Assembly (NCBI GenBank): GCA_903930565.1
Contig: CAIYZC010000357.1
Location: 4,728-68,727 of the forward strand
Reading direction: 5' to 3'
Source: an uncultured Pedosphaera sp.
Lineage (GTDB): Bacteria; Verrucomicrobiota; Verrucomicrobiia; Limisphaerales; Pedosphaeraceae
Length of the DNA stretch: 64,000 nucleotides
Shown here: one piece after another, positions 10,812 to 30,861 of the stretch
Position numbering within the stretch: position 1 is the stretch's first letter
Layout of the letters: each line of letters begins with the position of its first letter
Translations under genes and position numbers: made by a program
The notes under the pieces: generated by a model
Seen by the model: only the letters and a program-made list of their open reading frames with translations
The model's database searches: none
What the model was told of the DNA's origin: nothing

Positions 10812-11232
10812 CCTCGCTCTGTCGAATGCTGGGCGCGACCAAGGTGGCGTGCCGCGCTCTCGAAGATTCAGTATCAGTGCTCGCCGCAGCGGCGCTTGGG
10901 CTTGACCAATCCGGTTACAGTTCGGCTCCGTCGCCACCGCGGCGCCTCCCGGCGCAAACTTCCTTCGGATAATCAAGGAATCAGTTGCCATGCAACGGCC
11001 TCCCCGCTCAGTTCCCTGGGTGCGGCCCCACGGTCGTTTTCCAAGCGCCGCAGACGACTCGTCACGATGTCCTGTCATGGTTTGCCGTTTCGGCGATCGA
11101 GAGCGCCGTCCTGGAGGTGTGCCCCTTGAGTCTCAGCCTGTCCGGCCAATAAATTGGGGCGACGCAACCGCTTGATTGGCAAGGCTTTACGGAGGTTGAT
11201 CAAAGGAATCAAAAATAATTTGAGAAACCCTG

Positions 11233-11261
11233 TTGACAGGTTCTGCCATCGGTGAGAATAT
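11233..11261 (+). promoter_or_regulatory. Sigma70-like promoter (TTGACA - 17 nt - GAATAT, TG at -15/-14), with an AT-rich UP-like tract upstream
   Basis: TTGACA at 11233-11238 and gaatat at 11256-11261, preceded by 'aaaaataattt'. The entire module is repeated almost verbatim at 24374-24450. Confidence 0.55.
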
Positions 11262-11278
11262 ACGACCAAGTTGATCGT
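11262..11278 (+). promoter_or_regulatory. Near-palindrome ACGACCAAGTTGATCGT overlapping -10/+1 (candidate repressor operator)
   Basis: 14 of 17 positions are self-complementary. An identical 17-mer occurs at 24427-24443 in the same position relative to a TTGACA box. A perfect relative occurs at 11705-11723. Confidence 0.5.
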
Positions 11279-12154
11279 GTATGGCGGGTTCGAATTCACC
11301 GAAAACGAACTGCTAATCGCGGGTCAACCTTCACCGGAGCGGGTTCGGGAGAGCGGGCGGTCACATCACCGCGCTCGATCGACAGAGGCCGGTGAACCAG
11401 CCGGTGGCAGTCGCCGCGAGTTTCGATTCTCGACTCGACGGTGTTTCGTGCCGGGCGGCTTCGGCTGCCTTGTAGCCGGAGAGAATCGTGCTCTACCCGT
11501 CCCCGGGAAGCCCACAGAGCTCACCAGTCCACTGGAAGTTTCGATACGTCACAACCGTACTTGATAACATGACTGGAATATCACTTTTAACCATTTCCGG
11601 CTTGGCCGGTATCAGAGCCGCCCTGATGGCGCGCGGCTGGGGCCAATCCGTTCGGGCTGCCCTTGGCCCGCGGGGCGCAACCCGTCTTTGTGGGTGCCTA
11701 GAAACACGACCTAATAGGTCGTGTATCGCGGGCGGCTACGACCCCAAGTGTGCAGTGCCGCCGCCGGGTCGGTTGCGGCCGATGACGATTGCCAGGCGGC
11801 GGATGGTCCGCGAACCGCGCTCCCTCGAAGTCGTCATTTTGGAGGCATAGCCGCCCGGAGTTGCGGTTGGCTTTTGCAACCGCACCAGCCGGCGGAATCG
11901 CGCGCCACCCGACCCCGGCAAACTCACCGGGCTCTCCAGTCCACTGGAGCTTCCCAGTGCTTATAACCGCGAGTGTAACCATGTTTGGCAAATTAATATT
12001 GACGTCTTTTGACTTTGGCGGCGGCCGGACCGCGAGCTGGTCCGGCAGCCACCGCGAACCACTCCCCGCGGGTCGCAACCGACGGAGCGCAGGCCTTTCC
12101 GCCGCCGCCGGTTGCGGTTCCTCTGAATCTGCAATCTAAAACTGTAAACTGCTT
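11268..12154 (+). promoter_or_regulatory. About 0.9 kb structured 5' leader made of two diverged tandem units (about 11262-11575 and 11705-11985) upstream of the pseudopilin gene
   Basis: Each unit begins with ACGACC-N5-GRTCGTGTAT(G/C)GCGGG. Each ends with CTCACC..CCAGTCCACTGGA(A/G)..TT..ATAACC(G)..TAAC(C)ATG. Many GC-rich hairpins lie between (for example gcggttg/caaccgc at 11863-11882 and ccggacc/ggtccgg at 12024-12044). No convincing ORF. Confidence 0.45.
11705..11723 (+). promoter_or_regulatory. Perfect palindrome CACGACCTA-a-TAGGTCGTG (second operator-like site, or an RNA hairpin)
   Basis: 9-bp arms are perfectly complementary. Shares the ACGACC/GGTCGT half-sites and the downstream GTGTATcGCGGG with the site at 11262. 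The centres are about 441 bp apart. Confidence 0.5.
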
Positions 12155-13087
12155 ATGAACACGAACCAGAAACCATCCGAATTGGGAGCCGCCCAATCCC
12201 TTACTCCTGTCGCCCTTGCCTTGCCGCGCTTCCCCTTGCCCGCCCGGCCCCGGCGGCGGGCCGCGGCCGGGGCTTTCACGCTCATCGAATTACTGGTGGT
12301 CATCGCCATCATCGCCATCCTGGCGGCCATGCTCCTGCCGGCCCTGGCCAAGGCGAAGGACAAGGCGAAGGCAATCAATTGCGCGTCCAATCTGCACCAG
12401 TGGGGCGTGGTCTGGAGCACCTATACCTCCGACAATGCGGATTCATTCCCGCCGGGGACCAACCCCGACGGCAGCCCCGACCCCAACGCCCGTTCCGCTT
12501 GGTATGACTCGCTGCAGCACGATACCGCCACCTTCCAGAAAATTGTGCTTTGCCCGTCGGCGATGAATACCAACTACAACCTCTCCACCGCCGCGGGCCA
12601 GGCATCGTTTGGGGGGCTGGACACCGCCTTCCGTTTCCCCACGGCGGCGGGAAACGCGGATCTATACGAGGACGGCCAACCCGGGGGATACGGTGCGAAT
12701 CTATGGATATACAACACCCAAGTGGACATCCAAAACCGGGTGGCGGCCAACCATTGGCGCAAAACCTCGGGCACGCCGTTGCCCAGCCAAACGCCGTTGA
12801 TGGCGGACAGCATGTGGCGCGGCGGCGGACCGTGGTACGGCCCGGACGCGCGCACCTATCAGGCCGCGACCGGCCCCGGAGTGTCCTCGGGGGACGCCTC
12901 CCGTGAGATGGAACATTTCTGCGTCCCCCGTCATGGCTCGGGCAAGCGGACCGAACTGGTGTTCTTTGACGGTTCCGCCAGCACTCTCCGAGTGCAGAAC
13001 TTGTGGTCGCTCAAGTGGCACCAGAATTGGGATCAAAGCTATCAGGCGAACAATTACGCCCTGCCCACGTGGGTCCGGGCGCAGTGA
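12155..13087 (+). CDS. Prepilin-type N-terminal cleavage/methylation domain protein (type II pseudopilin-like, DUF1559/H-X9-DG-like)
   Basis: '[42 protein letters not shown]' is the class III signal/pseudopilin motif. The C-terminal '[19 protein letters not shown]' resembles the H-X9-DG tail with slightly longer spacing. The 38-aa leader is long, so the true start may be an internal non-ATG codon. Confidence 0.8.
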
Positions 13088-13160: not shown

Positions 13161-16100
13161 ATGAGAATTCCACAGGGTTTATTGTTGGTAGCGGCCGCCG
13201 GGGCACTGGCGCTCGCCGCGGACAGCCGGGCTGGTTCTGCCTATCAGTTGTCGTACCAGTATGATTCGACCGCATCGGATCCAACGCAGTTTCGTCAAAG
13301 CGTCTCCACGTTGACCAACGATGTGTTCTTTCCGTACAGCCCGTCCTTTGGGCAGCAGTTGGATGACTGGTATGTCTTCGCCGGCACCTCCCCCAGTTTC
13401 GGGCTGCAAGGATCGCAGCAGATTGAGGGGCCGGCCAACGGCACCGATTACGGCACTTGGATCTTTGGCTACCTCGAAGCCCCGCTGACCGGGGCGTATG
13501 TCCTCTCGATCGCCAGCGCGGACAACTCGCAGTTGTGGCTGAGCAATGACTATAATCCGACCAACGAAGTGCTTATCGCCTACGAACCAGGGTCGGGCAA
13601 TCCGCTATTTTCCGGCGGCGACCTCGACACTCGGAATTCCGCGCCCATCAACCTGGTCCGGGGTCAGAAGTACTACTTCGACGTGTACCAACAGGTTGGT
13701 CCCGGCCCCGGTTATGTCCAGGTGGGCTGGGTGCGGCCGGATGGCGTTCAGGAGTTGATTCCGGCGCTGCATTTGGCCCAGTACGAGGGCTACAACTTTT
13801 ACACGGGAATCGGACCCATCCAGGCGCCGCAGTTCAATGCGCCGGGAAACGGCAACCATGGCGGTTTCAATGGTGGCAACCTCACGAACTCGGTCGCGCT
13901 CGCGGAAGGGCAGGAGCTGCTCTTGCAACTGGATGTCATCGCCCAACAGCCGACGACGTTTACTTGGTTTACCAACGGGGTGGTAGTGGCCGGGCAAAAC
14001 CTTTCGTATTTTGATGTGCCGCGCACGCCCGCCACCTACAACAATTTTCAAATCCAAGCGGTGGTGGCCAACCAATTCGGCAGCCTGACGAGTGCTGTGT
14101 CCCATGTGACGGTGGCGCCGAACACCACCCGGCCGACGGTGGCCACGGTCGATACCGCCGGGAGGCCCAACACTTTGGAAGTGGTGTTCAGCAAACCCCT
14201 CGACCCGACGAGCGCCACCAATCTGGCCAACTACCAGGTTAGCGTGGTCGGCGGCGGGGAGTTCCCCTTGAGCGGCGCCGTGCCGTCCCTCTCATCGGAT
14301 CAGCAAACCGTGACTTGGTCCGGCGCTTTCAGTTTTGCCGCGGGAACCACATATCTGCTGACCATCAGCGACGTGCGGGACCAGGCCAGTCACCCCAACA
14401 TCCTGAACCCCAATCCGACCACGTCCCCGTTCACCCTGAGCGCACCGCTGGGCACGACCTACAATTTTAATGCCGGTCTCCCAACCGGGGTCGCGCTCTA
14501 CGGCAACGCCGTCATTGAAACCAGTCCGGATCCCACCATTGGCGGATACATCGCCCTAACCGACGCCGCCCGCAACGAAAGCGGCGCCGTCCTCCTCACG
14601 GCGCGCAACAACATCGACGGAGCCCACATCAAATTTGATGCCAGTATCGGGTCCTCGTTCAATGCCCTGACCGGCGGCTCCGACGGGGGGGACGGCTTCA
14701 GCGTGAACATTTCGGCAAATTTGCCTTTGGGAACGTTTCAGAATCCGCAATTTGGCTACTCACCGCCGGTCGCCGAGCCGCAATTCAGCGTGTATTTCAA
14801 TACCCGCCAAAACGGCGCGCAGAATCCCGTCGAAATCGGCGTCGCCTTGAACGGGGTCGTGTTGACCAATGTGCCGGCCGGCACCAATTTCAACAGCCTG
14901 GATGGCGTTCCCCCCCTCACCAGCGCCGACGGGCATTGGGCGCCGGTGGACATCAATCTCCAGCGCGATGGCACGCTCAATTTGTCGTTTGACGGCGTGG
15001 TCGTGGTCACCAATTTTCCCACGGGATGGGTGGGTTTGAATAGCGCCCAGGTCGGCCTCGCGGCCAGAACCGAGAATTGGTTCGAGACCCACTATATCGC
15101 CAATTTATTCTTGAACTTCTATGAGGGCTACGTGGGCAATGTCGGCCTGGCCGCCAACAGCGTTTTGGGCGGAACCTTTCCCGAGGGCTCGACCGTCATG
15201 CTCCTGGCCAACCCCACGGGCGCAGGACCGGATTTGTATCAGTGGTACCGCAATGGAACCCCGATCAGCGGCGCCACCAACCGGGTGCTGTCCTTTCCGG
15301 CGACGGTGGGTGCGGGTGGCGGTTTTTCCCTGGGGATCAGCAATTCCTTTAGTGGGTTCTTGAGCAGTCCGCAGAGCGTGGTGATTCAACCGAATCTGAC
15401 GCCGCCCCAAGTCGTCTCGGGCAAAGCCACCGCCGGCAGCATCAATAAATTGTTCCTGCAGTTCAATCAGACGCTCGAAGTGGTGAGCGCGACGTCCCCC
15501 GCCACCTATTCTTCGCCCTATTTTGCGGTGACCGGCGTGACTTTGGGCGTGGATGGTCGAAGCGTCGTGTTACAGACCACCCAGCAGCGCTACGGCGCGA
15601 GTTATCCCGTCACCATCCGCGGTTTGAAAGACAGCTACGCCGCGCAGAATGTATTGAACACCAACCTCACGGTGGTTTCCGGTCTGAGCTACGACGATGA
15701 AGTCCTCGGGGACTCCCCGGTGCGCTATTACAAACTCAACGAGACGGGTGGTACGGTGGCCTACACCCAAACCACGGGCGGCGATTCCCTGAACACCAAC
15801 GGCATCTATCAGTTCGCCCCGTTGCTGGGCAGTCCGTCCATTGTTCCCTCGGCCGCGAACGATTTCGCGGCTCTGTTTGTCAACAGCAGCAGCAATAATG
15901 TCCTTGTGCCCAACAATGGCGACATTAATGTGACCCGCGGCCCCTGGCACCAACGGAGCATCGAATTGTGGTTCAATGCGAGCAGTTTTCCGATCGGCCG
16001 GCAGCCGGGGGACAGCGCGGTGAACGCCCAGACGCATGCCGTGACCGGGCTGTGGCAGGAAGGGGGGAATCTGCGGGATATCGGAATCTATCTCTGGAAT

Positions 16101-18590
16101 CCCGCGATCAATGCGGTGGCCAACACTAATCCTCCGGCCCAGGCATTATTGGCCTTCACCTCTTATAACTCGACCGACGACGGCCCTGGATCGCCCTTCG
16201 GTCTGCTTTTGAATCCGCCCGTTTACGTGACCTACCCGGTCACGACTGGGGTCACCTATCACGTCGTGGGTGTGCTCGATGGCGATCCCATCGGCACCAG
16301 CGGCGAACTGCGGCTCTATGTCAACGGCCAGTTGGCGGGGCGCACGACCAACGGGGTGGGGCAGATTTACGATCACAACGGTTCAGTGCATATCGCCGGC
16401 GGCGGCAGTTCCCGTTCGCACCTCAATGTGAGCGGCCTGTGGAATTATTTCGACGGCCTGGAGCAGGATGTTTCGATTTACAACTCCGTCCTTTCCTCCA
16501 ACGCCATTCTCGCGCATTACCTCGCTGGCACGGGCGACAGCTTGGTGCCAACGACGCCCCCCACCTTGGTTGCGGGCGTGGACCCGCAAGGCGACCGGCG
16601 GGCTCTCACCGTCGTCTTTAATCAGCCGGTGTCGCCCCAGACCGCGACCAACCTCGCTAACTATGTGCTGCAAACGAGCGGTGGCGGCGGCCTGGTGGTG
16701 CAATCGGCCCAACTCCAGGCCGATTTGCGGACCGTCACACTGAACTTGGGGGCCGCCTCGAGTTTCGCGGTGGGGGCCGCCTACCACGTGGCCGTCAGCG
16801 GGGTGGCGGATATTCTGGCGCTGGCCAATACCGTCGCTCCCACCAATTTGGGTTTCACTTTCACCAGCAGTGGGCCGGTGGGGATTGCGAACTCGAGCAC
16901 GCTCGGCGCGCAAAACGTCACGGAAAATCAAAGCGTTCAATTCTCCGTCAATGCCACCGGGCAACCCCCTTATTTTTATCAGTGGTATTACAACGGGGGT
17001 GTTGTGCCGGGGCGTACCAATGCGGTGCTCAGTTTCCCGGCCCCGCTTACTGCAGCCGGGAGTTACACCGTGGTGGTCAGCAACCTCTTCAGTGCGATCA
17101 CCAGCAGCCCGCCCTCGGTGCTGACCGTTTTGGCGGACCATACGCCACCGCAGTTGACCCAGGTGCGCGGATTGGCCGGCAGCCTCAACGAAATCGTGCT
17201 CAACTTTAATAAACCCGTGGACCCGGTCACGGCCACTAATTTGGCCACCTACAGCCTCCCGACCGCGGCTGCGACCGGCTTGGCCCTCCTTGGGGCCGCG
17301 ATTGCGACCAACGGAACGCAGGTCACCCTCTTCACCACGACGCAGACGCATGGTCAGACCAATGAGTTGAGCATCACCAATTTGAAGGATTTGGCGCATA
17401 CCCCCAATACCCTGTCCGTCACGGTGCAGTTTGCCTCCAGTATCAGCTACCGCGATGAAGTGCTCGCGGAGCCGGGACTGGTGCGCTACTTCACGTTTGA
17501 CGAGACCAACGGCACGTCCGTGAATTCCTTGGTGTCGAAGTTTGACACTTCCTCCCTGAACATCGTCGGGACGATTCGCGGAACGGGTTCCTCGCCGCTG
17601 CTGGGGGTCCCCGGTCTCATCGCCAATATCCCGAACAACACCGCGATCAGTTTTGATGGGACGGGCGGCACCAATCGCATCGAGTTGCCCAACGGAGCGG
17701 ATCTCAACTCGACCCTGGGACCGTGGTATCAAATCACCACCATCTTCGCCTTTGAAGCCCGGACGCTGCCGCAGATTCAGATCACGCCGAGTTTGACCAA
17801 CTATCAGGTACCGGTGCTCTTCTCGGACCTGCAGTATGCGGTTTACCTTTACCCCACCCAGACGAACAACAACAACCCCACCAGCGCCCAACTCGTCTTC
17901 GAAGCGCAGCAAACCTCCAGCGCAGGCGCCGGTTCACCCTGGGGCGGCAACACCACCGCCACGGCGAAGTACATCCCCTACACCATTCAGCCGAACAAAG
18001 TTTACCACGTGGTTGCCGTTCTGGATGGGAATGCGGGCTTTGTCAGCGGCGCGATGCGACTTTACATCAACGGCGTGCGGGTCGGCACGGTTAATGGCAT
18101 CGGGGCCATTTATCAAAACCCCAACGATCCGCCGGGATTCAGCCAGGGTTACGTGACGGCTTACTCCGGCAAGGGGGCGAAGAGCATTAATCCGGAGCTG
18201 GTTACCGCGACCACGCTGCTGGACGAACCGCTCAACGGTGTGATCGACGAGTTTGCATATCTGAATCAAGGCACCTTGACCGATCAACGCATTGCGCAGC
18301 TTTACGCCTACTCCCAGACCAATTGGGCGGGCAACGGCTTTGCGATTGTCACGAACGCCCTGGCCGGGCCGCCCCCCGCGATCAGCGTGGCTTCCTTGGC
18401 GGGGGGGGGTGCCCTGCATGTGAGCTGGCCGTCCAGCGCGTCCGGGTACCACCTCGAATATAGCACGAACCTGGCGTCGGGCTTGTGGTACTCGAACAGC
18501 TTACCGCCCGTGGGGACGAACGGAAACCAGGTCGTTAATCAGCCGGTGGGCTCGCGGGGCAACTTGTTCCTGCGCCTGCGCCATCCTTGA
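13161..18590 (+). CDS. Giant secreted multidomain protein: PA14-like + Ig-like + SbsA-Ig-like + LamG/ConA-like modules
   Basis: Signal peptide 'MRIPQGLLLVAAAGALALAADSRAGS'. PA14-like block (aa ~45-200: 'GYLEAPLTGAYVLSIASADNSQLWL...GQKYYFDVYQQ...VQVGW'). Repeated 'YQWY.NG....G.TN..LSF' Ig modules. 'P.V......G..N...V.F..P.DP..ATN.ANY' SbsA_Ig-like modules. Two LamG-like blocks ('LRLYVNGQLAG', 'MRLYINGVRVG'). Confidence 0.8.
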   Translation: MRIPQGLLLVAAAGALALAADSRAGSAYQLSYQYDSTASDPTQFRQSVSTLTNDVFFPYSPSFGQQLDDWYVFAGTSPSFGLQGSQQIEGPANGTDYGTWIFGYLEAPLTGAYVLSIASADNSQLWLSNDYNPTNEVLIAYEPGSGNPLFSGGDLDTRNSAPINLVRGQKYYFDVYQQVGPGPGYVQVGWVRPDGVQELIPALHLAQYEGYNFYTGIGPIQAPQFNAPGNGNHGGFNGGNLTNSVALAEGQELLLQLDVIAQQPTTFTWFTNGVVVAGQNLSYFDVPRTPATYNNFQIQAVVANQFGSLTSAVSHVTVAPNTTRPTVATVDTAGRPNTLEVVFSKPLDPTSATNLANYQVSVVGGGEFPLSGAVPSLSSDQQTVTWSGAFSFAAGTTYLLTISDVRDQASHPNILNPNPTTSPFTLSAPLGTTYNFNAGLPTGVALYGNAVIETSPDPTIGGYIALTDAARNESGAVLLTARNNIDGAHIKFDASIGSSFNALTGGSDGGDGFSVNISANLPLGTFQNPQFGYSPPVAEPQFSVYFNTRQNGAQNPVEIGVALNGVVLTNVPAGTNFNSLDGVPPLTSADGHWAPVDINLQRDGTLNLSFDGVVVVTNFPTGWVGLNSAQVGLAARTENWFETHYIANLFLNFYEGYVGNVGLAANSVLGGTFPEGSTVMLLANPTGAGPDLYQWYRNGTPISGATNRVLSFPATVGAGGGFSLGISNSFSGFLSSPQSVVIQPNLTPPQVVSGKATAGSINKLFLQFNQTLEVVSATSPATYSSPYFAVTGVTLGVDGRSVVLQTTQQRYGASYPVTIRGLKDSYAAQNVLNTNLTVVSGLSYDDEVLGDSPVRYYKLNETGGTVAYTQTTGGDSLNTNGIYQFAPLLGSPSIVPSAANDFAALFVNSSSNNVLVPNNGDINVTRGPWHQRSIELWFNASSFPIGRQPGDSAVNAQTHAVTGLWQEGGNLRDIGIYLWNPAINAVANTNPPAQALLAFTSYNSTDDGPGSPFGLLLNPPVYVTYPVTTGVTYHVVGVLDGDPIGTSGELRLYVNGQLAGRTTNGVGQIYDHNGSVHIAGGGSSRSHLNVSGLWNYFDGLEQDVSIYNSVLSSNAILAHYLAGTGDSLVPTTPPTLVAGVDPQGDRRALTVVFNQPVSPQTATNLANYVLQTSGGGGLVVQSAQLQADLRTVTLNLGAASSFAVGAAYHVAVSGVADILALANTVAPTNLGFTFTSSGPVGIANSSTLGAQNVTENQSVQFSVNATGQPPYFYQWYYNGGVVPGRTNAVLSFPAPLTAAGSYTVVVSNLFSAITSSPPSVLTVLADHTPPQLTQVRGLAGSLNEIVLNFNKPVDPVTATNLATYSLPTAAATGLALLGAAIATNGTQVTLFTTTQTHGQTNELSITNLKDLAHTPNTLSVTVQFASSISYRDEVLAEPGLVRYFTFDETNGTSVNSLVSKFDTSSLNIVGTIRGTGSSPLLGVPGLIANIPNNTAISFDGTGGTNRIELPNGADLNSTLGPWYQITTIFAFEARTLPQIQITPSLTNYQVPVLFSDLQYAVYLYPTQTNNNNPTSAQLVFEAQQTSSAGAGSPWGGNTTATAKYIPYTIQPNKVYHVVAVLDGNAGFVSGAMRLYINGVRVGTVNGIGAIYQNPNDPPGFSQGYVTAYSGKGAKSINPELVTATTLLDEPLNGVIDEFAYLNQGTLTDQRIAQLYAYSQTNWAGNGFAIVTNALAGPPPAISVASLAGGGALHVSWPSSASGYHLEYSTNLASGLWYSNSLPPVGTNGNQVVNQPVGSRGNLFLRLRHP

Positions 18591-18637: not shown

Positions 18638-21433
18638 ATGAGGCACTTACAACAGCTCAAATACCTCCGGTCATGGTTGACCGTTTCGGTCCTGGCGGTG
18701 GCGACCGCCGCGAGCGGTCAGGGCGCCGCCAAGACCAAGTCCATCACCCCCGCGCAACGCGAATTCTTCGAAAGCAAGATCCGCCCGGTGCTCATCGAGC
18801 ATTGCTACGACTGCCATTCGGACGAGAAGGGCAAGAACAAAGGCGAGTTGACGCTCGACACCCGCGATGGGATTCGAGCGGGTGGTGATCGGGGACCGGC
18901 GGTGGTGCCCGGGAAGCCGGATGAAAGCGTCCTGATCAACGCCATCCGCCAGGTCGGCCAATTGCGCATGCCCCCCGATTCGCGCGGTGGTCCGCTGTCC
19001 GAAAGTGTGGTGGCGGATTTCGAAAAATGGGTGGCGGAGGGCGCCCCGGACCCCCGCGACGCCGCCAAAGTGGGCGTGGTTGAGGCGGCGAAGCCGGAAA
19101 AGCCGGTGGAATGGGACAAGGAACGGCAGTTTTGGGCGTTTCAAAAGCCGAAAGCCGTGACGCCGCCCCAAGTGCTGAATACGGGGTGGGCGAAATCACC
19201 GGTGGATCAATTCGTCCTGGCGGGATTGGAGACCAAAGGTCTTCACCCAGTCGCGGACGCGGACAAGCGGACGCTGCTGCGGCGGACTTATTATGACCTG
19301 ATCGGTTTGCCCCCGTCCCCCGCGGAGATCGAGAGTTTCGTGCAGGATTTGGCGCCGGACGCGCTGGAGAAGATCGTGGACCGCCTGCTGGCCTCGCCGC
19401 GCTTTGGGGAACAATGGGGGCGCTATTGGCTGGACGTTGCGCGGTACGGGGAATCAACGGGGTTGGATCGCAACTTGAATTTTCCCTACGCCTGGCGATA
19501 TCGCGACTACGTCATCGACGCGTTCAACCACGACAAACCCTACGACCGGTTTATTTTGGAACAGATCGCCGGGGATCAACTGCCTTTCACCAGTGAAAAG
19601 GAACATGACGCCAACCTCACGGCGACCGGCTTTTTGGCCATCGGCCCCAAGGGTTTGAACGAGACGCGCGTGAAGTACTCCAAATGGCAGGTGGTGGTGG
19701 ACCAGATCGACGCCACCTCCCGGGGCTTTCTGGGGCTGACGGCGGGTTGCGCCCAGTGCCACGATCACAAGTTTGATCCCATTCCCCAGAAGGACTATTA
19801 CGCACTGGCCGGGATTTTCTCCAGCACCGAAACCCTCTATGGAACGGTCGGGGGACGCGGTAATCGCCGGCCGACCTCGTTGCTGTCGCTGGCCGGCGCC
19901 CCCGCGCTGGCGGTGCTCTCCACCGGGGAGCCGACGCCCAACATGTTCGTGAACACGAACGCCAACTTCAATGCCACGCCCCGCACCAATGGATTGGCCC
20001 GCCGGGTGAATGGCACGAACGGCTTTGGTGGCGGCGCGCGTCGCTTCGCACGCAACGTCAGCACCAACATCCTGGAGCGCATCCCGGCGACCAACACCTA
20101 CGCGATGGGCGTGCGCGACTATGACGAGCCGCAAGCGGCGTCCATCTATTACCGGGGGGATTTGACCAAGCCGCGGGATACCGTCCCGCGCGGTTTCCTC
20201 CGGATCTTGGCGTTGCCCCAGACCCCGGCCATTCCCACCAATGCCAGCGGCCGACTGCAACTGGCGCAATGGATCACCGACCCCGAGAATCCGCTGACCG
20301 CGCGCGTCGCCGTGAACCGGGTCTGGCAACATTTGTTCGGCGAGGGGATTGTCGCCACGCCGGATAATTTCGGGCACCTTGGGACCGCTCCCACCCATCC
20401 GGAATTGCTGGATTATTTGGCGGCGAAGTTTGCCACGGAGCAGAAGTGGTCCTTCAAGCAACTGGTGCGCTCCCTGGTGCTGACGCGGGCCTACCAACTC
20501 AGCAGCGAGATCGACGCCAAGGCCGCGGAGGCGGATCCGGAGAACCGTTTGCTCTGGCGGGCGACACCCCGGCGGCTCAAAGCCGAGCAGTTGCGCGATT
20601 CCATTCTGACTTCGAGCGGCCGCCTCGACTTGAATCCCCCTGCCTTCCCCGACACCGCGCGGTTTGGCGACGGTTACTACGGGGTGAACATTTGGGAGAG
20701 CGACCTGCCCCAGCACTTCTATTCCCGGAGCGTTTATCTGCCCGTGCCGCGCGATCTCGTGCCCGAATCCCTGTCCCTTTTCGATCTCCCGAATCCCAAC
20801 CTGGTGGGCGCCCACCGGGAGGAGACGACCTCGCCCAGTCAGGCGCTTTTCCTGATGAACAACGCCTTCGTGCAGGACGAGGCCCTGCACCTGGCCCGGC
20901 AACTTGCGAGCAACCAGGACTTGTCGGATGCGGAACGTATTCAACGGGCCTACCTGGCGGTGTTCCAACGGCGGCCGAGCCCGGACGAAGTCCAGCGCGC
21001 CACCCGGTTCATCCAGGAGGAGGCCGGCGTCTTGGCGGAGACTAAGTCGTTCAAGCCCGAGCAAACCGGGTTGGACATCCAATTGAAGCCCGCACCGGAA
21101 GCGCCGGCGCCCGCCGGTGAAGTGGCGGTGCCCCAGTTCGCCAAAGCCGAGCCTGCCGCCCCAGTGCCGGCGGCGGTGGTGGGGGCTCCGGCCGTCGCGG
21201 ATGACGGGACCAACGCCCCAGCCGCGGGGGGCTTCAATCCCCGCGGCCCCCGGCGCTATCTCGGCCCCGGTTCGGCGAGCGATGTCGTGGTTGGCAAACT
21301 GGCGCCGGGTATCGCCCGGCCCAAGGTTTTCCAGCAAGCCCTGCCGGAGCAGCCGGCCACGCCCGAGGAAGGTGCTTACGCGTTGTTCGCGCAGGCCTTG
21401 TTCGGCAGCGCGGAATTCCGCTATTTGCAGTGA
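18638..21433 (+). CDS. PSCyt1 (CxxCH) / DUF1549 (PSCyt2) / DUF1553 (PSD1) protein
   Basis: 'FFESKIRPVLIEHCYDCHS' is a planctomycete cytochrome-c motif. 'DQFVLAGLETKGLHPVADADKRTLLRRTYYDLIGLPPSPAEIESF' is DUF1549-type. 'RVAVNRVWQHLFGEGIVATPDNFG' is DUF1553-type. Confidence 0.85.
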   Translation: MRHLQQLKYLRSWLTVSVLAVATAASGQGAAKTKSITPAQREFFESKIRPVLIEHCYDCHSDEKGKNKGELTLDTRDGIRAGGDRGPAVVPGKPDESVLINAIRQVGQLRMPPDSRGGPLSESVVADFEKWVAEGAPDPRDAAKVGVVEAAKPEKPVEWDKERQFWAFQKPKAVTPPQVLNTGWAKSPVDQFVLAGLETKGLHPVADADKRTLLRRTYYDLIGLPPSPAEIESFVQDLAPDALEKIVDRLLASPRFGEQWGRYWLDVARYGESTGLDRNLNFPYAWRYRDYVIDAFNHDKPYDRFILEQIAGDQLPFTSEKEHDANLTATGFLAIGPKGLNETRVKYSKWQVVVDQIDATSRGFLGLTAGCAQCHDHKFDPIPQKDYYALAGIFSSTETLYGTVGGRGNRRPTSLLSLAGAPALAVLSTGEPTPNMFVNTNANFNATPRTNGLARRVNGTNGFGGGARRFARNVSTNILERIPATNTYAMGVRDYDEPQAASIYYRGDLTKPRDTVPRGFLRILALPQTPAIPTNASGRLQLAQWITDPENPLTARVAVNRVWQHLFGEGIVATPDNFGHLGTAPTHPELLDYLAAKFATEQKWSFKQLVRSLVLTRAYQLSSEIDAKAAEADPENRLLWRATPRRLKAEQLRDSILTSSGRLDLNPPAFPDTARFGDGYYGVNIWESDLPQHFYSRSVYLPVPRDLVPESLSLFDLPNPNLVGAHREETTSPSQALFLMNNAFVQDEALHLARQLASNQDLSDAERIQRAYLAVFQRRPSPDEVQRATRFIQEEAGVLAETKSFKPEQTGLDIQLKPAPEAPAPAGEVAVPQFAKAEPAAPVPAAVVGAPAVADDGTNAPAAGGFNPRGPRRYLGPGSASDVVVGKLAPGIARPKVFQQALPEQPATPEEGAYALFAQALFGSAEFRYLQ

Positions 21434-21464: not shown

Positions 21465-22913
21465 ATGAACCAACCACCTCTTCCCCAACGCTGCGACGGA
21501 GTCATCCCCGGGGTCTACACCCGGCGCCAGATGCTCAAGACCCTCACCACCGGCTTCGGCTATATGGCTTTCTCCGGGCTGGCCACCCAGGCCGCCCTGG
21601 CCGAGGGCCTGGGCGCGGACCCCGCCGCCGGCGCGGCCGCGGACGCGAGCCTGCTGCTGCCGAAAAAGCCGCATTTCGCCGCCGGCGCCAAGCGGATCAT
21701 CTTCCTCGGCATGGAAGGCGCCCCGTCCCATGTGGACACGTTTGATTACAAACCCAAGTTGCAGGCCGACAACGGGAAGACCTCGCCGACCAACGAGGAC
21801 CGTCAGATGCTCGGTTCCACCTTTGGCTTCAAGCAATACGGGCGGAGCGGCAAATGGATCTCCGAGTTGTTCCCCCAGGTGGCGACCCACGCGGATGAAC
21901 TGTGCTTCCTGCACGGCATGTGGACCAACGCGCCCGCGCTGCACCCGCAGGCGTGGCCGGCGTTGCACACCGGCAGCCCGGTGTTCGTCCGGCCGTCGAT
22001 GGGCTCCTGGATTCTCTACGGTTTGGGCACCATGAACCAAAACCTGCCCGGCTTCGTCACCATCAAACCGGCGCTGTCCATCGGCGGCGGGCAATCCTAT
22101 GAGTCCGCCTTCCTGCCCTCGGTTTATTCAGCCACCCGCATTGGCGAATCCAAGACCGACATCCGCAATTGCGGCGTCAACAACATCCGCAACGCCAATA
22201 TCGACAACCGGGCCCAGCGCCGCCAAATCGATTTCGTGCAGGAGTTGAACCACGATCTCCTCAAAAAGGGCTCCCTCGACCACCAAGTCGAAGGGGTCAT
22301 TCAATCCTACGAACTCGCTTTCAAGATGCAGATGGAGGTTCCGGAAGTGACGGACATCTCGAAGGAATCGCAAAAAACCTTGGACCTCTACGGGGTGGGC
22401 CAGGATGAAACCGATGACTTCGCCCGCCAATGCCTGCTGGCCCGGCGCTTCGCCGAAGCCGGCGTGCGGTTCATCGAAGTGTGCTACGATGACTGGGATC
22501 ATCATGGTCAGCTCTACACGGGCCTCAAAAAGAGCACCCGGGCGGTGGACCAGCCGATCGCGGCCCTGCTCACGGATCTCAAGGAGCGCGGTTTGCTCAA
22601 GGACACGCTGGTTCTCTGGGGCGGCGAGTTTGGCCGCACCCCGGACAGTCCCAAACCCGACGGCCGCGATCACAGCACCAAGGGGTGGACGATGTGGATG
22701 GCGGGCGGCGGCGTGAAGCCCGGCTTCTCCTACGGCGCCACCGACGAGTACGGCATTAGCGCCGTCGAGGGGCGCATGGATTACCACGATTTGCACGCGA
22801 CCCTCCTGCATGCCTTCGGGCTCGACCATGAGAAGCTCACCTACCGCTACGGCGGGCGGGATTACCGCCTCACCGACGTTTCGGGCATTGTCGCCGAGGA
22901 GATTTTCGCCTGA
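21465..22913 (+). CDS. DUF1501 (sulfatase/alkaline-phosphatase-superfamily-like) protein with Tat-like signal
   Basis: 'TRRQMLKTLTTGFGYMAFSGLA' is twin-arginine-like. 'EGAPSHVDTFDYKPKL' and 'WGGEFGRTP' are typical of DUF1501. This is the canonical partner gene of DUF1549/DUF1553 proteins. ATG 21465 is chosen over the out-of-context 21117 start. Confidence 0.85.
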   Translation: MNQPPLPQRCDGVIPGVYTRRQMLKTLTTGFGYMAFSGLATQAALAEGLGADPAAGAAADASLLLPKKPHFAAGAKRIIFLGMEGAPSHVDTFDYKPKLQADNGKTSPTNEDRQMLGSTFGFKQYGRSGKWISELFPQVATHADELCFLHGMWTNAPALHPQAWPALHTGSPVFVRPSMGSWILYGLGTMNQNLPGFVTIKPALSIGGGQSYESAFLPSVYSATRIGESKTDIRNCGVNNIRNANIDNRAQRRQIDFVQELNHDLLKKGSLDHQVEGVIQSYELAFKMQMEVPEVTDISKESQKTLDLYGVGQDETDDFARQCLLARRFAEAGVRFIEVCYDDWDHHGQLYTGLKKSTRAVDQPIAALLTDLKERGLLKDTLVLWGGEFGRTPDSPKPDGRDHSTKGWTMWMAGGGVKPGFSYGATDEYGISAVEGRMDYHDLHATLLHAFGLDHEKLTYRYGGRDYRLTDVSGIVAEEIFA

Positions 22914-24228: not shown

Positions 24229-24397
24229 TCCTGGTGCTGTCGCCCTTGCCGTCCCGCACAAATTTTTATCGGCGGCCGCCGACAAGTTTGAAGCCAGGCC
24301 GCCGGGTGGATGAAAAAGCCAATCGTGATAACCGGTTCATCATCAAGGGTTTAGAAACATTTTTGAAGGTTCGCTAAAATAATTTTACGAATCCTTG

Positions 24398-24426
24398 TTG
24401 ACAGGGGAGGAGTTCACGATCAATAT
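24398..24426 (+). promoter_or_regulatory. Sigma70-like promoter (TTGACA - 17 nt - CAATAT), second copy of the 11233 module
   Basis: TTGACA at 24398-24403 and caatat at 24421-24426, preceded by 'aaaataattt', as at 11210-11220. Confidence 0.55.
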
Positions 24427-24443
24427 ACGACCAAGTTGATCGT
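24427..24443 (+). promoter_or_regulatory. Near-palindrome ACGACCAAGTTGATCGT (identical to 11262-11278)
   Basis: Exact 17-nt identity, with conserved flanks: 'aatatACGACCAAGTTGATCGTGaATGGCGG' versus 'aatatACGACCAAGTTGATCGTGtATGGCGG'. Confidence 0.5.
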
Positions 24444-24828
24444 GAATGGCGGCTGCTAAATCCGCAAATATCAGCCGCGGAGGTCGGATCGATCTTCCGC
24501 GGTGTCGGAACGGGCTTCGCTGATCGTCGGAGTGGCAGGCAAGGCTGGAGTTCTGCTGGTTAACCCCGAAACCCGAAACCCGAAAGGGTCCAAGGAAGTG
24601 TTTGGAACGTGGGCAGGAATCGATCCGGGATTTTAGCCGGGCTCCCGACGTCCGCGAAGCATTCGTCCAGGTAAAACGCATCCGTAACGAAGATGGCCGC
24701 CTTGAATTTCACCAAGCGTGGGGAAAGTGCCAGTCCGGCCGCCGGTCCGGGTCCGGAAGGGCTGCGGCCAAATTGAATCGATACCACGACTCCCCGGGCT
24801 GGCGCATCCGGCCCTCGGTAATCCCCCT
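24433..24828 (+). promoter_or_regulatory. About 0.4 kb structured leader upstream of the M14-like/cysK/encapsulin genes, related at both ends to the 11.3-12.0 kb leader units
   Basis: The 5' end is identical to unit A. The 3' part, 'tcaccaag...gccagtcc(ggccgccggtccgggtcc)ggaagg...tcgatacc', parallels 'ctcaccagtccactggaagtttcgatacg' of unit A, with an expanded hairpin. Confidence 0.4.
24565..24585 (+). repeat. Heptanucleotide tandem repeat (CCCGAAA)x3 followed by GGG
   Basis: Read directly: 'cccgaaacccgaaacccgaaaggg'. The last unit can form a CCC-GAAA-GGG tetraloop hairpin. Confidence 0.9.
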
Positions 24829-25662
24829 ATGAATCCCTCCCCAACTATTATGCGCGCACTCGTTCCCAAGCGGCGTACCGTGCTGCCCACCGAGAGCCCG
24901 GCGGAGCACCGCCGAGCGGATCCTCCGATTGAGTTCCTCCAGCCGCTGCTGGATTTGGCCCGAGTCTCGGATTCCGTCATCGCGGGAACCGTCGGGAAAT
25001 TTACGGCGGGGGGCGGAACTTTTCGCATTCCCCGCTTCATTTTCATGGGCCCGACGGGCGGCGGCCAACCAATTCGGATTGGTTTGTTCGCCTGCTTCCA
25101 TGGTGACGAATGGGAGGGGGCGGAGGCGTTGGTCGAGCTGTTTCTGCATTTCGAGCGCCATCCCGAATTGGTGAAGGACTTTCACCTTTACGCCTATCCT
25201 GTTTGCAATCCCTTTGGCTTCGCGGCGAGCGCCCGCCGCAACGCGAATGGCTGCGACTTGGCTGCCGAGCTCTGGCGCGGTTCCTCCCAAGTGGAGGCTT
25301 ATTATGTGGAGCGGGAAATGGGCGTGCATCAGTTTCACGGCGTGATTTCCTTACACACGGCCAAGAATTCCAGCCGGTTCTCCGCCGCGTGCCCCAGCGC
25401 CCTTCTCCAAGAGGCGGTGGCCGGGCCCGCCCTCTTGGCCACCCGGCGGTTCAGCCCGGCCGGTGCCGATAGCGCCGTCGGCCTGGCCGTGCCCAACGGC
25501 TTTCTGACCGCGACCGACGAACTCCGTCCCGCTCCCTTTGAAATCAACCTGGCCATCCCCCGCCTGCTGCCCGGTCCCTTCTGGGTTCAGGGAACGGTGG
25601 CCGCCTTGGCCTCGATCCTGCACTCCTACCGCAACCTGATGGCCTTTCGCCCAAATATATGA
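24829..25662 (+). CDS. M14 / succinylglutamate-desuccinylase-aspartoacylase-like zinc hydrolase family protein (divergent)
   Basis: 'GLFACFHGDEWEG' is an HxxE zinc motif. 'YPVCNPFGF' is the NP.G motif. 'ISLHTA' is a candidate third zinc ligand. The usual 'DLNR' reads 'DLAAE'. The start is taken at ATG 24829, since the ORF upstream of it lies in the leader. Confidence 0.55.
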   Translation: MNPSPTIMRALVPKRRTVLPTESPAEHRRADPPIEFLQPLLDLARVSDSVIAGTVGKFTAGGGTFRIPRFIFMGPTGGGQPIRIGLFACFHGDEWEGAEALVELFLHFERHPELVKDFHLYAYPVCNPFGFAASARRNANGCDLAAELWRGSSQVEAYYVEREMGVHQFHGVISLHTAKNSSRFSAACPSALLQEAVAGPALLATRRFSPAGADSAVGLAVPNGFLTATDELRPAPFEINLAIPRLLPGPFWVQGTVAALASILHSYRNLMAFRPNI

Positions 25663-25843: not shown

Positions 25844-26827
25844 ATGGGAAACATCTACCAAAACATCACCGAAACCATTGGGCGCACTCCCTTGGTTAAA
25901 CTCAACCGGGTGGCGGCCGGCGTGCCCGCCACCATCCTGCTCAAGTGCGAGTTTTTTAATCCCTTGGGCAGTGTCAAGGACCGCATCGGTCTGGCCCTGA
26001 TCGAGGACGCGGAGCGGCGGGGCGTGCTCAAGCCGGAAACCGTGATCATTGAACCCACCAGCGGCAACACCGGCATCGCCCTTGCTTTTGTCGCCGCCGC
26101 GAAGGGATATAAGATCATCCTGACCATGCCCGAAACGATGTCGTTGGAGCGGCGCACGCTCCTGGCGTTGCTGGGGGCGAAACTCGTGCTCACGCCCGGT
26201 AAAGAGGGGATGAAGGGGGCGATCGCCCGCGCCGAGTTGTTGGCGAAGGAAACGCCCAATTCCTGGATTCCCCAGCAGTTTGAGAACCCGGCGAATCCGG
26301 CCGTCCACCAACGGACTACCGCGGAGGAGATCTGGGCGGACACGGATGGCCGGGTGGACATTTTGGTGGCGGCGGTGGGCACGGGCGGCACGATCACCGG
26401 TTGTGTGGAGGTAATCAAACCGCGCAAGCCCACGTTCGTGGCGATCGCCGTCGAGCCGAAGGATTCGCCGGTGATTTCGCAGACCCTGGCGGGGCAAACA
26501 CCGGTGCCGGGGCCGCACAAAATTCAAGGCACCGGGGCGGGATTTGTGCCCAAAAACCTGCACCTGAAGGACAGCCTGGGCCATTCGCAGATTACGGAGT
26601 GCGTGCAGGTGACCAATGACGAAGCCATCGGGATGGCGCGACGGCTGGCCAAGGAAGAAGGGTTGTTGGTGGGAATTTCTACCGGCGCGAATGTGGTGGC
26701 GGCGCTGCAAGTGGCGGCGCGACCGGAGAACCATGGGAAGATTATCGTTACCGTTGCTTGCTCCACTGGCGAGCGATATCTCAGCACTGCCTTGGCCGAC
26801 GAAGCCCGGGCGGCCGTCGGGGGCTGA
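25844..26827 (+). CDS. cysK: Cysteine synthase A (O-acetylserine sulfhydrylase)
   Basis: '[12 protein letters not shown]', the PLP-lysine motif '[11 protein letters not shown]', and '[11 protein letters not shown]' with 'GTGGTITG'. Full-length, about 327 aa. Confidence 0.9.
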
Positions 26828-27195: not shown

Positions 27196-28167
27196 ATGCC
27201 GAATAATCCAGATTCCAAGATTCCCGGACTCAGCCTCAGCGCCACCGCCGCGCGCAACCTCGCCACCGCCACCGTAACGGTGCCGCAGATGGCGGAAATT
27301 ACCCCGCGTTGGCTTCACCGTCTTCTGCCTTGGGTGGATGTGGACGGCGGGGTCTACCGGGTCAACCGCATCGCGAAAGCGGCGGCCGGCAAACCCGCCA
27401 ATGAGTTCGGGGAAACAAAAGTGGATCTCGTCACCGTGGACGGCGGCGAACCCAAATTGCCCACCACTTTCGTCAATTACGAGGAGGACCCCCGCGAGTA
27501 CCATCTGAGCACCATCCAGACGGTGCTGCGCACCCACACGCGCGTCACCGACCTGTACAGCAACCAGATCGACCAACTGCGCGAACAAATCCGCCTGACG
27601 GTCGAAGCGGTGAAGGAACGCGAGGAATGGGAGCTGATCAACCATGCGGCCTTCGGCCTGCTGCATGAAGTGGCGCCTTCGCAAAGAATCCATACCCGCA
27701 AAGGCGCGCCTTCGCCCGATGATTTGGATGAACTGCTCACCTTGGTTTGGAAGAGGCCCGCGTTCTTCCTGGCCCATCCCCGGGCGATCGCTGCTTTCGG
27801 CCGCGAATGCACCCGCCGGGGCGTGCCGCCGCCCACCGTGCAGCTGTTTGGCTCCCCGTTCCTGACCTGGCGGGGTTTGCCGCTCATCCCCAGCAACAAA
27901 CTCGAGTTGAATGCCAAGACCGGCGCGACCAGCATTCTGTTGCTGCGTGTGGGGGAGGCGGAGCAAGGCGTCGTGGGCCTGCAAAAAACCGGGGTCACCG
28001 GGGAAGTCGAACCGGGCCTCTCCGTCCGCTACATGGGCACCAACGAGAATTCCATCGCCTCCCACTTGATCACGCGCTACTTCTCCACCAGCGTGCTCAC
28101 CACGGATGCCATCGCCCGCCTCGACAACGTCCTCGTTGACCAATATCATGAGTATCAGTGGAAGTGA
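27196..28167 (+). CDS. Family 2A encapsulin nanocompartment shell protein (HK97-fold, no cNMP-binding domain)
   Basis: Motifs 'ITPRWLHRLLPWV', 'GVYRVNR', 'DPREYHL', 'GAPSPDDLDELL', 'AAFGRECTRRGVPPP', 'LTWRGLPLIPS', 'QGVVGL', 'GLSVRY' and 'DQYHEYQ' match my recollection of SrpI-type Family 2A shells. The gene is directly followed by an N-terminally extended cysteine desulfurase. Confidence 0.85.
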   Translation: MPNNPDSKIPGLSLSATAARNLATATVTVPQMAEITPRWLHRLLPWVDVDGGVYRVNRIAKAAAGKPANEFGETKVDLVTVDGGEPKLPTTFVNYEEDPREYHLSTIQTVLRTHTRVTDLYSNQIDQLREQIRLTVEAVKEREEWELINHAAFGLLHEVAPSQRIHTRKGAPSPDDLDELLTLVWKRPAFFLAHPRAIAAFGRECTRRGVPPPTVQLFGSPFLTWRGLPLIPSNKLELNAKTGATSILLLRVGEAEQGVVGLQKTGVTGEVEPGLSVRYMGTNENSIASHLITRYFSTSVLTTDAIARLDNVLVDQYHEYQWK

Positions 28168-29874: not shown

Positions 29875-30861
29875 ATGAGTGCCTTACCGATTGAAGCGGG
29901 GACGCCCGCCCTGCCGAGGGAAACCCGCCGGGACGCCGTTTGGATGCGCGAGGTCTTGGAGGAAACGGTCCCGGAGTTGCTCCACTCCTATCAGCGCGCC
30001 GGCGGATTGAACCATCGCGAATCGCACAACCTGCCCTCCAAGCGGGCGGTGGGGCAGATTTGCGAGGGCTTGCTGCAAATCCTCTTCCCGGGCTTTCACG
30101 ATGATGACGTGGTGCCCCACGGCTCCTTGGAAGAATTCACCACACGCCGGCTCGCGACAGTCGTCCAAGCCTTGATTGACCAGGTGCGCAAGAGCGTGCG
30201 CGTGGGCGATCCTCATAAGCCGACCGGCAAGACGCCGCCCATCATTCGCAAGTTCTGCCGCGCTTTGCCCGAAATCCGCGAATTGCTGCGCTGGGACGTC
30301 GAAGCGGCGTTTGACGGTGACCCCGCGGCGTTGCTTCGCGAAGAAATCATCCTCTCCTATCCCTTCATTGAGGCCGTGGCCATCCAGCGTCTGGCCCACC
30401 GCCTGCATGTGTTGGGCGCGCCCGTGCTGCCGCGCATGATGACGGAGTGGGCGCACAACCGCACGGGGATCGACATTCATCCCGGCGCGCTCCTTGGGAC
30501 GCATTTTTTTATCGACCACGGAACCGGCATCGTCATCGGCGAAACCTGTCGTATCGGAAACCACGTCAAAATCTACCACGGCGTCACCTTGGGCGCCCGG
30601 AGCTTTGTCAAAGACCAGTCGGGCCACATCATCAAGGGGGGCAAGCGGCATCCGGACGTGGGCGATCATGTGACCATTTATCCGAACTCCACCATCCTGG
30701 GCGGCAAGACCTTCATCGGCTCCAATTCCACCATTGGCGCGAACGTGTTCCTCATGCACAGCATCCCGGCCAATTCGCTGGTGGTTTACGAAGAGAAACA
30801 ATTGACCATTCGGGAAAAGCCGGAGCCAAAAGCGCCCGCCGACCGGGATTCCTCGATGTGA
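29875..30861 (+). CDS. cysE: Serine O-acetyltransferase
   Basis: Left-handed beta-helix hexapeptide core 'GIDIHPGALLGTHFFIDHGTGIVIGETCRIGNHVKIYHGVTLGA'. Long helical N-terminal domain. Start is ATG 29875, or TTG 29860 overlapping the upstream stop. Confidence 0.85.
   Translation: MSALPIEAGTPALPRETRRDAVWMREVLEETVPELLHSYQRAGGLNHRESHNLPSKRAVGQICEGLLQILFPGFHDDDVVPHGSLEEFTTRRLATVVQALIDQVRKSVRVGDPHKPTGKTPPIIRKFCRALPEIRELLRWDVEAAFDGDPAALLREEIILSYPFIEAVAIQRLAHRLHVLGAPVLPRMMTEWAHNRTGIDIHPGALLGTHFFIDHGTGIVIGETCRIGNHVKIYHGVTLGARSFVKDQSGHIIKGGKRHPDVGDHVTIYPNSTILGGKTFIGSNSTIGANVFLMHSIPANSLVVYEEKQLTIREKPEPKAPADRDSSM

Follow-up and report, generated by a model that had tools for sequence, protein, structure and literature searches.

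Two promoters in a 64-kb stretch of DNA from a lake Verrucomicrobium (the whole of the analysed stretch is called the window here) carry a 25-bp palindromic operator, which we assign with fairly high confidence, from sequence comparisons, to an Rrf2-family repressor of a sulfur regulon. The source genome (G000) is 6.6 Mb in size with 64% G+C, and the DNA datasets containing the window sequence are lake metagenomes. The genes linked to the operator are cysK, a sulfite-reductase-like gene, sbp and cysTW, together with genes for an OscA-like protein, a porin, an M14-like protein and an encapsulin with its cysteine desulfurase. That sulfur is the signal for the regulator is proposed with less confidence than the pairing of operator and regulator.

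An earlier note on this DNA had described a near-identical module of promoter and palindrome in two copies (A and B), and both copies were found in their places, with the block structure confirmed by alignment. The elements of the module in the window are as follows.

11212-11221, + strand: A/T tract (aaaataattt) of copy A, UP-element-like by presumed role; kept in copies A and B, in the modules on contigs C470 and C762 and in the promoters of relatives (aaaataatttcaaaaa...)
11233-11238, + strand: -35 hexamer TTGACA of copy A, inside the block TGTTGACAGG, read from sequence and alignment
11256-11261, + strand: -10 hexamer GAATAT of copy A, read from sequence, after a 17-nt spacer; its last four bases are the first four of the operator
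24376-24386, + strand: A/T tract of copy B, from alignment with copy A
24398-24403, + strand: -35 hexamer TTGACA of copy B, read from sequence and alignment
24421-24426, + strand: -10 hexamer CAATAT of copy B, read from sequence, after a 17-nt spacer
11262-11278 (A) and 24427-24443 (B): 17-mer core ACGACCAAGTTGATCGT, identical in sequence in both copies

A third complete module exists on another contig of the same genome (C470:2018-2067), and a fourth, with a degenerate right half-site, at C762:783-833. In GAATAT of copy A, positions 2 and 6 are A and T, and relatives have GATAAT at the position of the xAATAT hexamer of G000.

The 17-mer had been read as a 14/17 palindrome on -10/+1, and its self-match to the reverse complement is indeed 14/17, directly against xAATAT. 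Comparison of all copies showed, however, that the true palindrome is 25 bp long, ATAYACGAYC-N5-GRTCGTRTAT, with a left arm that includes the last four bases of the -10 hexamer. A second palindrome downstream (CACGACCTAATAGGTCGTG, 11705-11723) is perfect (9+1+9) as had been described, though it lies at a distance of 444 nt and not of about 441. The three sites of the window, none of them assigned to a strand, are given here with their scores in a position weight matrix.

11258-11282: operator O-A, 25 bp, ATATACGACCAAGTTGATCGTGTAT; 33.7 bits; spans -10 to about +15, predicted start about 11268
11702-11726: auxiliary operator, 25 bp, AAACACGACCTAATAGGTCGTGTAT, without a -35 hexamer, at the head of the second leader unit; 34.5 bits
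24423-24447: operator O-B, 25 bp, ATATACGACCAAGTTGATCGTGAAT; 33.1 bits, predicted start about 24433

These sites stand far above the background. The pattern ACGAYC-N5-GRTCGT has three matches in the window (11262, 11706 and 24427) against 0.01 expected, and none of 100 dinucleotide-preserving shuffles reached three. A scan of the whole genome for this pattern, along the lines proposed in the earlier note, gave five exact sites in 6.6 Mb, of which four are those of A, the auxiliary site, B and C470, whereas the fifth, on C524, is GC-flanked and inside a gene. With the position weight matrix, the three sites of the window score 33–35 bits, and the next best position 1.8 bits. Genome-wide, seven sites exceed the maximum of 15.7 bits obtained in the control; these are the three window sites, C470:2043, C762:809, C762:266 and C762:926.

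A scan of one genome per species (pattern TTGACA-N18-20-ATATACGAYC-N5-GRTCGT) led to the candidate regulator. Besides one chance match inside a Bacteroidales gene, four matches were obtained: on two contigs of a Verrucomicrobiota metagenome-assembled genome (MAG), upstream of an M14-like gene and of cysK with a sulfite-reductase-like gene; in a Verrucomicrobiota MAG from peat, upstream of a porin-like gene; and in a Planctomycetaceae MAG (L042), where the module lies directly 5' of an Rrf2 gene that is followed by genes for a porin, a sulfate-binding protein (sbp), cysT and cysW. G000 has an Rrf2 gene (C762:294-755, 153 aa) whose product is 64% identical to that of the Planctomycetaceae MAG, and it is bracketed by the motif. 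The site C762:266, with 10 of 12 core positions, lies between a TTGACT box and the GTG start of the gene; the fourth module begins 28 nt past its stop codon, with the site C762:809 at 54 nt past the stop and a further site, C762:926, 117 nt downstream of C762:809. Behind this module come an OscA-like gene, another M14-like paralogue and additional genes of the same orientation. The first of these genes (C762:984-1170) is an open reading frame (ORF) of 62 aa, related to OscA/DUF2292, a family of the sulfur starvation response, at E = 1e-9, which is below the family cut-off; homologues occupy the same position in L084, L113 and L125. The regulator, whose family could not be named when the module was first described, is therefore most likely an Rrf2-family protein.

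This linkage recurs in metagenomes. The best 80 of more than 555 relatives of the regulator (79-86% identity; peat, bog and lake samples) were collected with their flanks. A first matrix, trained on G000 and the four genome matches only, gave 78 matches scoring 14 bits or more in the 346 kb of these loci, whereas the reversed matrix gave one; 77 of the 78 lie within 400 nt of the ends of the regulator gene. A refined matrix (cut-off at least 12 bits), trained partly on the same metagenomic loci later scored and hence somewhat circular, gave 206 matches against six for the reversed matrix in the 80 loci with orthologues. With it, a site in the regulator's own promoter was found in 66 of 78 loci, and a site at most 110 nt after the regulator stop codon, here called O1, in 70 of 76. 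A second operator further downstream, O2, is present 73-127 nt beyond O1 (most often 103-106 nt) in 55 loci, in agreement with the proposal of an auxiliary operator downstream of copy A. The genes behind O1 and O2 encode a porin, a sulfate-binding protein, OscA-like proteins and M14-like proteins. The distance from the end of the TTGAC hexamer to the 25-bp site is exactly 19 nt in 55 of 63 distinct related O1 promoters, and the same geometry is found in the window; together with the independently conserved half-sites, this fixed arrangement supports the original interpretation as an operator of the repressor type.

O2 is preceded by a variable GC hairpin and, 5-9 nt upstream, a conserved TTTTTATTTG box in 50 of 52 distinct relatives (L078-L156) and in G000 (C762:834-950). 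The arrangement resembles a terminator between promoter and genes and has no Rfam match; possible roles are those of an attenuator or short leader RNA, of a terminator for the regulator's own transcript, or of a DNA-bending tract.

Among 41 relatives of the same order, an orthologue of the Rrf2 gene was found only in G000, G001, G020, G022 and G028, and sites with an AT-rich centre only in the first four of these, whereas the genomes lacking an orthologue gave GC-centred matches at control frequency. The strict pattern of promoter plus operator matched only G000 among 40 relatives, and was too strict because relatives use AATAACGAC-N7-GTCGT. In a pattern scan of 401 genomes of the phylum there were about 110 matches against about 35 for the control; most are GC-rich in the centre and located within genes, and the exact variant of G000 thus has no wide distribution. 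Three exact sites in G001, a genome of the same genus, were rejected as operators, being arms of a multi-hairpin intergenic repeat (L035:2520-2575, L036:3666-3760 and L037:3830-3960) in which the arm GAATCACGACC-loop-GGTCGTGATTC mimics the operator core. This repeat looks like a REP- (repetitive extragenic palindromic) or MITE- (miniature inverted-repeat transposable element) like element unrelated to the regulon.

There are three full Rrf2 paralogues in G000, and the operator has a layout like that of the type-1 sites of IscR, so that several Rrf2 proteins might read it, and binding by the C762 protein is itself a prediction. The operator could thus be real and yet be bound by another paralogue (on C517 or C827) or by an unrelated factor, with the C762 gene simply a member of the regulon. 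We regard this as improbable, since the motif brackets genes of the C762 type at the frequencies given above and also in a second phylum, the surroundings of the Rrf2 genes on C517 and C827 contain no site scoring 12 bits or more, and AT-rich-centre sites were seen only in genomes carrying an orthologue of the C762 type. Still less credit is due to the idea that a strong promoter has simply been copied about the genome, with the palindrome as a by-product without a regulator; of all the explanations weighed here we give it the least. It is true that near-identical blocks stand ahead of unrelated genes and that copies A and B are identical at 31 of 32 positions from the -10 hexamer onward. However, near-identity does not extend over the whole segment: the 17-nt spacers of A and B differ at most positions, so that the similarity is confined to functional blocks. 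In addition, the same architecture is kept, with diverged sequence, across species and phyla, and the perfect site at 11702-11726 has no promoter.

Nearly as remote is an action of the 17-mer in RNA, as a 5'-terminal stem-loop that stabilises the mRNA or recruits an RNA-binding or antitermination factor. A 6-bp stem is possible, the second copy heads the second tandem unit of leader A, the following block (A/T)AT(G/C)GCGG is common to A, B and the auxiliary site, and in these operons the leaders are long and the genes very long. Given the usual distance of 7 nt from the -10 hexamer, however, transcription would start near 11268 and 24433, inside the loop, and the left arm would then be untranscribed; the palindrome moreover extends into the untranscribed -10 hexamer, and where the regulator gene itself carries a site in its promoter, this is placed after a -35-like box and ends 3-6 nt before the start codon. 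Of the eight sites found first, five retain a C-A mismatch in the stem. Among 64 distinct sites C6, A8, T18 and G20 are invariant, G7, C9, G17 and C19 are strong, and the centre and ends are A/T. The Watson-Crick complementarity of symmetric pairs equals the expectation under independence at all 12 pairs (observed and expected values of 0.69 and 0.67 for 9/17, 0.73 and 0.76 for 7/19, and 0.20 and 0.27 for 10/16). There is thus no covariation, and each arm is conserved separately toward one consensus, as in a DNA site bound by a homodimer and not in a selected RNA stem. Rfam, searched at the gathering threshold over the window and 19 related loci and at E ≤ 1 over both leaders, gave only an unrelated tRNA, and a search for tRNA and tmRNA found none. 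Judged by these column statistics, the palindrome has the pattern of a protein-bound DNA operator and not of an RNA hairpin.

The block G(T/A)ATGGCGG follows directly 3' of both 17-mers. Recruitment of an RfaH/ops-like factor or a NusG paralogue through its GGCGG part was considered and dropped, because that part is absent from the modules on C470 and C762 and from relatives. An ATG that is formed by the operator's right flank begins short ORFs, MAGSNSPKTNC* (11281-11316) and MAAAKSANISRGGRIDLPRCRNGLR* (24446-24523), each with one Cys codon near its end and with no evident Shine-Dalgarno sequence. They may be due to chance or may be cysteine-sensing leader peptides; the ATG is not conserved in relatives.

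The C762 protein passes only the general rrf2_super model, while its scores with the equivalog models for CymR, IscR, NsrR, RirA and the SUF regulator are far below their cut-offs. Among solved structures, an Rrf2/BadM regulator (4CIC) is closest, followed by CymR (2Y75, E = 2e-16). Three cysteines, C92, C101 and C107, are shared by every one of 68 distinct orthologues, 67 of which contain no further cysteine, and with this triad the protein is more like the cluster-binding members of the family than like CymR. The cysteine spacing of IscR is C-X5-C-X5-C-X2-H, unlike the C-X8-C-X5-C of the C762 protein. The general consensus of the operator is AATAACGAC-N7-GTCGTTTAT, with ATATACGACC-N5-GATCGTGTAT as the variant of G000, and a CGAC/GTCG inverted repeat with cores about one helical turn apart, as well as a linked Rrf2 gene with a site in its own promoter, is found as in the IscR type-1 layout. 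The IscR type-1 site, ATASYYGACTRWWWYAGTCRRSTAT, is recognized by [2Fe-2S]-IscR alone, and repression there works through occlusion of the promoter (PMC3899308). It shares with the present operator the 25-bp frame, CGAC/GTCG cores at 6-9 and 17-20, the A/T centre and the ATA/TAT ends. By a hand count the window sites match the type-1 consensus (PMC3899308) at 18 of 25 positions, which is similar to the 68% and 76% of accepted Pseudomonas IscR sites (PMC3899308). Further points of likeness to IscR of E. coli and Pseudomonas (PMC3899308) are an Rrf2-family homodimer with three cysteines, promoter-overlapping and tandem sites, autoregulation and repression by the holo-form, which for the C762 protein are predictions apart from the cysteines and the positions of the sites. 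This situation is different from that of IscR in three further respects: the C762 protein is below the equivalogs (TIGR02010, 58.5 against 207.55 bits; NF008110, 49.6 against 275), genes of its type adjoin oscA-like, porin, sbp and M14-like genes and not isc or suf, and its regulon consists of sulfur acquisition and envelope operons instead of Fe-S (iron-sulfur) assembly.

CymR of Bacillus and Staphylococcus, an Rrf2 repressor with a regulon for cysteine and sulfur acquisition, is the best-scoring equivalog model, and, as would be expected of the CymR type, genes for cysteine and sulfur acquisition stand behind the present operator. However, the C762 protein reaches only 77.8 bits with NF047409 (cut-off 195), and the operator sequence differs. 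CymR lacks a cysteine triad for binding a cluster and becomes active by forming a complex with CysK, and the three invariant cysteines of the 68 orthologues therefore argue for a different mode of sensing. The regulon is also comparable to those of sulfate starvation (CysB/Cbl; OscA), in that an OscA-like gene and sbp stand behind the operator and the proteins of the regulon are poor in sulfur amino acids, although CysB and Cbl are LysR-type regulators and belong to a family other than Rrf2.

Sulfur sparing is a known signature of proteins induced by sulfur starvation, and the composition of the proteins encoded behind the operators conforms to it. The genome has 152 ORFs of 1000 aa or more, and among these the 1809-aa protein of operon A has the lowest content of Cys+Met, 0.0011 compared with 0.0062 for the second lowest; the giant proteins of other operator-driven operons rank fourth (C762:6225-10280) and eighth (C470) lowest of the 152. 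Among all long ORFs, the encapsulin, the desulfurase and the PSCyt protein fall near the 5th-6th percentile. The nearly sulfur-free 1809-aa protein thus independently marks operon A as part of a response to sulfur limitation.

Based on these comparisons, the following mechanism is proposed. The promoter would be of the sigma-70 type (A/T tract, consensus -35, 17-nt spacer and xAATAT), with an operator covering the -10 hexamer and about 15 transcribed positions. A homodimer of the Rrf2 protein of C762:294-755 would bind the 25-bp site on the -10/+1 of an otherwise strong promoter and repress by excluding RNA polymerase or blocking the open complex, at its own gene and at the adjacent sulfur operon. 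The clade of this regulator, conserved in Verrucomicrobiota and in at least one Planctomycetaceae genome, would control sulfate uptake and cysteine synthesis. In G000 the regulon would further include the cysK, type 2A encapsulin and cysteine desulfurase operon of copy B, and two paralogous operons (A and C470) for a pseudopilin and a giant lectin-like protein, to which A adds PSCyt-DUF1553 and DUF1501 genes. The site at 11702-11726 would be a second operator, derived from a tandem duplication of operator plus leader, and would serve as a roadblock or a looping partner. The three invariant cysteines would hold an Fe-S cluster, and by analogy with IscR type-1 sites the holo-protein would bind DNA under sulfur sufficiency; limitation of sulfur (cysteine) would lower the occupancy of the cluster and thereby derepress sulfate uptake, cysteine synthesis, the encapsulin system and the two envelope operons.

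A more far-reaching reading joins four parts, and that all of them hold together seems to us rather doubtful. The three-cysteine Rrf2 clade would be the master sensor of sulfur sufficiency in many Verrucomicrobiota and some Planctomycetota; the occupancy of its Fe-S cluster would report the supply of cysteine or sulfide; repression would proceed through two or three helically phased operators, namely one in the promoter of the regulator gene itself, O1 in the target promoter and O2 behind a hairpin resembling a terminator; and the pseudopilin, giant PA14/LamG, PSCyt-DUF1553 and DUF1501 proteins would form a sulfur-scavenging envelope machine of nearly sulfur-free proteins. If this were true, the machine would capture and desulfate organic sulfate esters, and the regulon would reveal a role for enigmatic families of the Planctomycetes-Verrucomicrobia-Chlamydiae (PVC) superphylum.

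Several points weigh against the assignment and the mechanism. Operator binding and the transcription start are predictions; no RNA dataset was found to contain the window, and two metatranscriptomes with the relative L095 yielded at most five short contigs at a depth of about 2-10, none over the operators, which is too sparse to map a start. xAATAT matches TATAAT at only three of six positions and is thus a weak -10 hexamer, for which reason a generic sigma-70 scan calls neither promoter, and the promoter call is based on conservation. The Fe-S cluster and the sulfur signal are putative, and sensing by a cluster would also respond to iron or oxidants. Because the refined matrix was trained in part on the scored loci and the 80 loci are related, its counts overstate the independent support. 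The source genome is a metagenome bin of 870 contigs with 4.8% contamination, which makes it an assumption that the regulator and its targets belong to the same organism. The pseudopilin of operon A has no orthologue at E ≤ 1e-30 in the four related genomes with the regulator, and conservation of the regulon membership of operon A is therefore not demonstrable. Finally, ATGGCGG after the operator is common to A and B and in part to the auxiliary site, and an operator model has no explanation for it.

Transcriptional regulation in the PVC superphylum is, to our knowledge, almost unmapped. In the literature we could find no sulfur regulator, of the Rrf2 family or otherwise, described for Verrucomicrobiota or Planctomycetota, and no Rrf2 control of an encapsulin operon. 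While the Rrf2 family itself is known, the regulator clade predicted here, with its operator and regulon, seems to be undescribed. It provides a defined operator, a named candidate gene for the regulator and a small, sharply delimited regulon, in which classical genes for sulfate and cysteine are joined with a sulfur-storing encapsulin operon and with the DUF1549/DUF1553/DUF1501 and pseudopilin families, which are hugely expanded and of unknown function.

Copy A is located in an intergenic gap of 1.34 kb, followed by a long leader and four genes.

11268-12154, + strand: leader of operon A, about 0.89 kb, with two diverged tandem units (about 11255-11704 and 11697-12154) recognized by global alignment
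12155-13087, + strand: gene 1, pseudopilin-like, with an N-terminal methylation motif (Pfam N_methyl)
13161-18590, + strand: gene 2, PA14/LamG/Ig protein of 1809 aa with 0 Cys and 3 Met (Pfam)
18638-21433, + strand: gene 3, PSCyt1/PSCyt2/PSD1 (DUF1549/DUF1553) protein (Pfam); Cys+Met at the 5th percentile
21465-22913, + strand: gene 4, DUF1501 protein (Pfam DUF1501, E = 1e-138); start codon uncertain, 21465 being the first in-frame ATG after the upstream stop

The global alignment of the two leader units scores 257, against 159 +/- 11 for shuffles. The palindrome stands at the beginning of both units, so that the site at 11702-11726 arose by duplication of operator plus leader, and a role of this predicted operator as a roadblock or looping partner is plausible because downstream second operators are usual in relatives of the regulon. 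A 63-nt block with 81% identity is kept in both units (11474-11536 and 11887-11948), pointing to a further functional element, of RNA or of another kind, in addition to the operator. The layout of the C470 module is similar to that of operon A, with a leader of about 0.84 kb followed by a pseudopilin-like gene and a gene for a protein of 1401 aa, and the two leaders show no similarity outside the 75-nt module. Just upstream of the C470 pseudopilin gene (C470:2725-2770) there is a promoter-like stretch, TTGACAACTACGTTACAAATTTGTAATTTACC, with a GTTACAAATTTGTAAC-like palindromic core, which may be an internal promoter with a different operator.

Copy B stands about 0.4 kb before the first gene of its operon, with a leader of that length.

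24829-25662, + strand: gene 1, M14-peptidase-like protein with an HGDE motif, from the translation; no match to a Pfam or NCBIfam family
25844-26827, + strand: gene 2, cysteine synthase CysK (Pfam PALP); start set by alignment of orthologues
27196-28167, + strand: type 2A encapsulin shell protein, SrpI-like (Pfam SrpI-like, E = 4e-108)
28106-29863, + strand: cysteine desulfurase, the presumed cargo of the encapsulin (Aminotran_5)
29875-30861, + strand: hexapeptide-repeat acyltransferase, serine acetyltransferase-like (weak Hexapep match)

The orthologous cysK of G001 has a short and different upstream region without the module. Operon B resembles the family 2A encapsulin system of SrpI from Synechococcus, which is controlled by sulfur starvation, in that its SrpI-type encapsulin with a cysteine desulfurase falls into a family of compartments for sulfur metabolism (PMC8049743, PMC10836720). 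The M14-like protein of gene 1 has a paralogue in G000 (C762:1255-2091) and homologues directly downstream of operators in L038 and L082. With about 270 aa and an HGDE / NPxGF pattern, it resembles M14 carboxypeptidases or succinylglutamate desuccinylase, and it is among the most constant members of the sulfur regulon.

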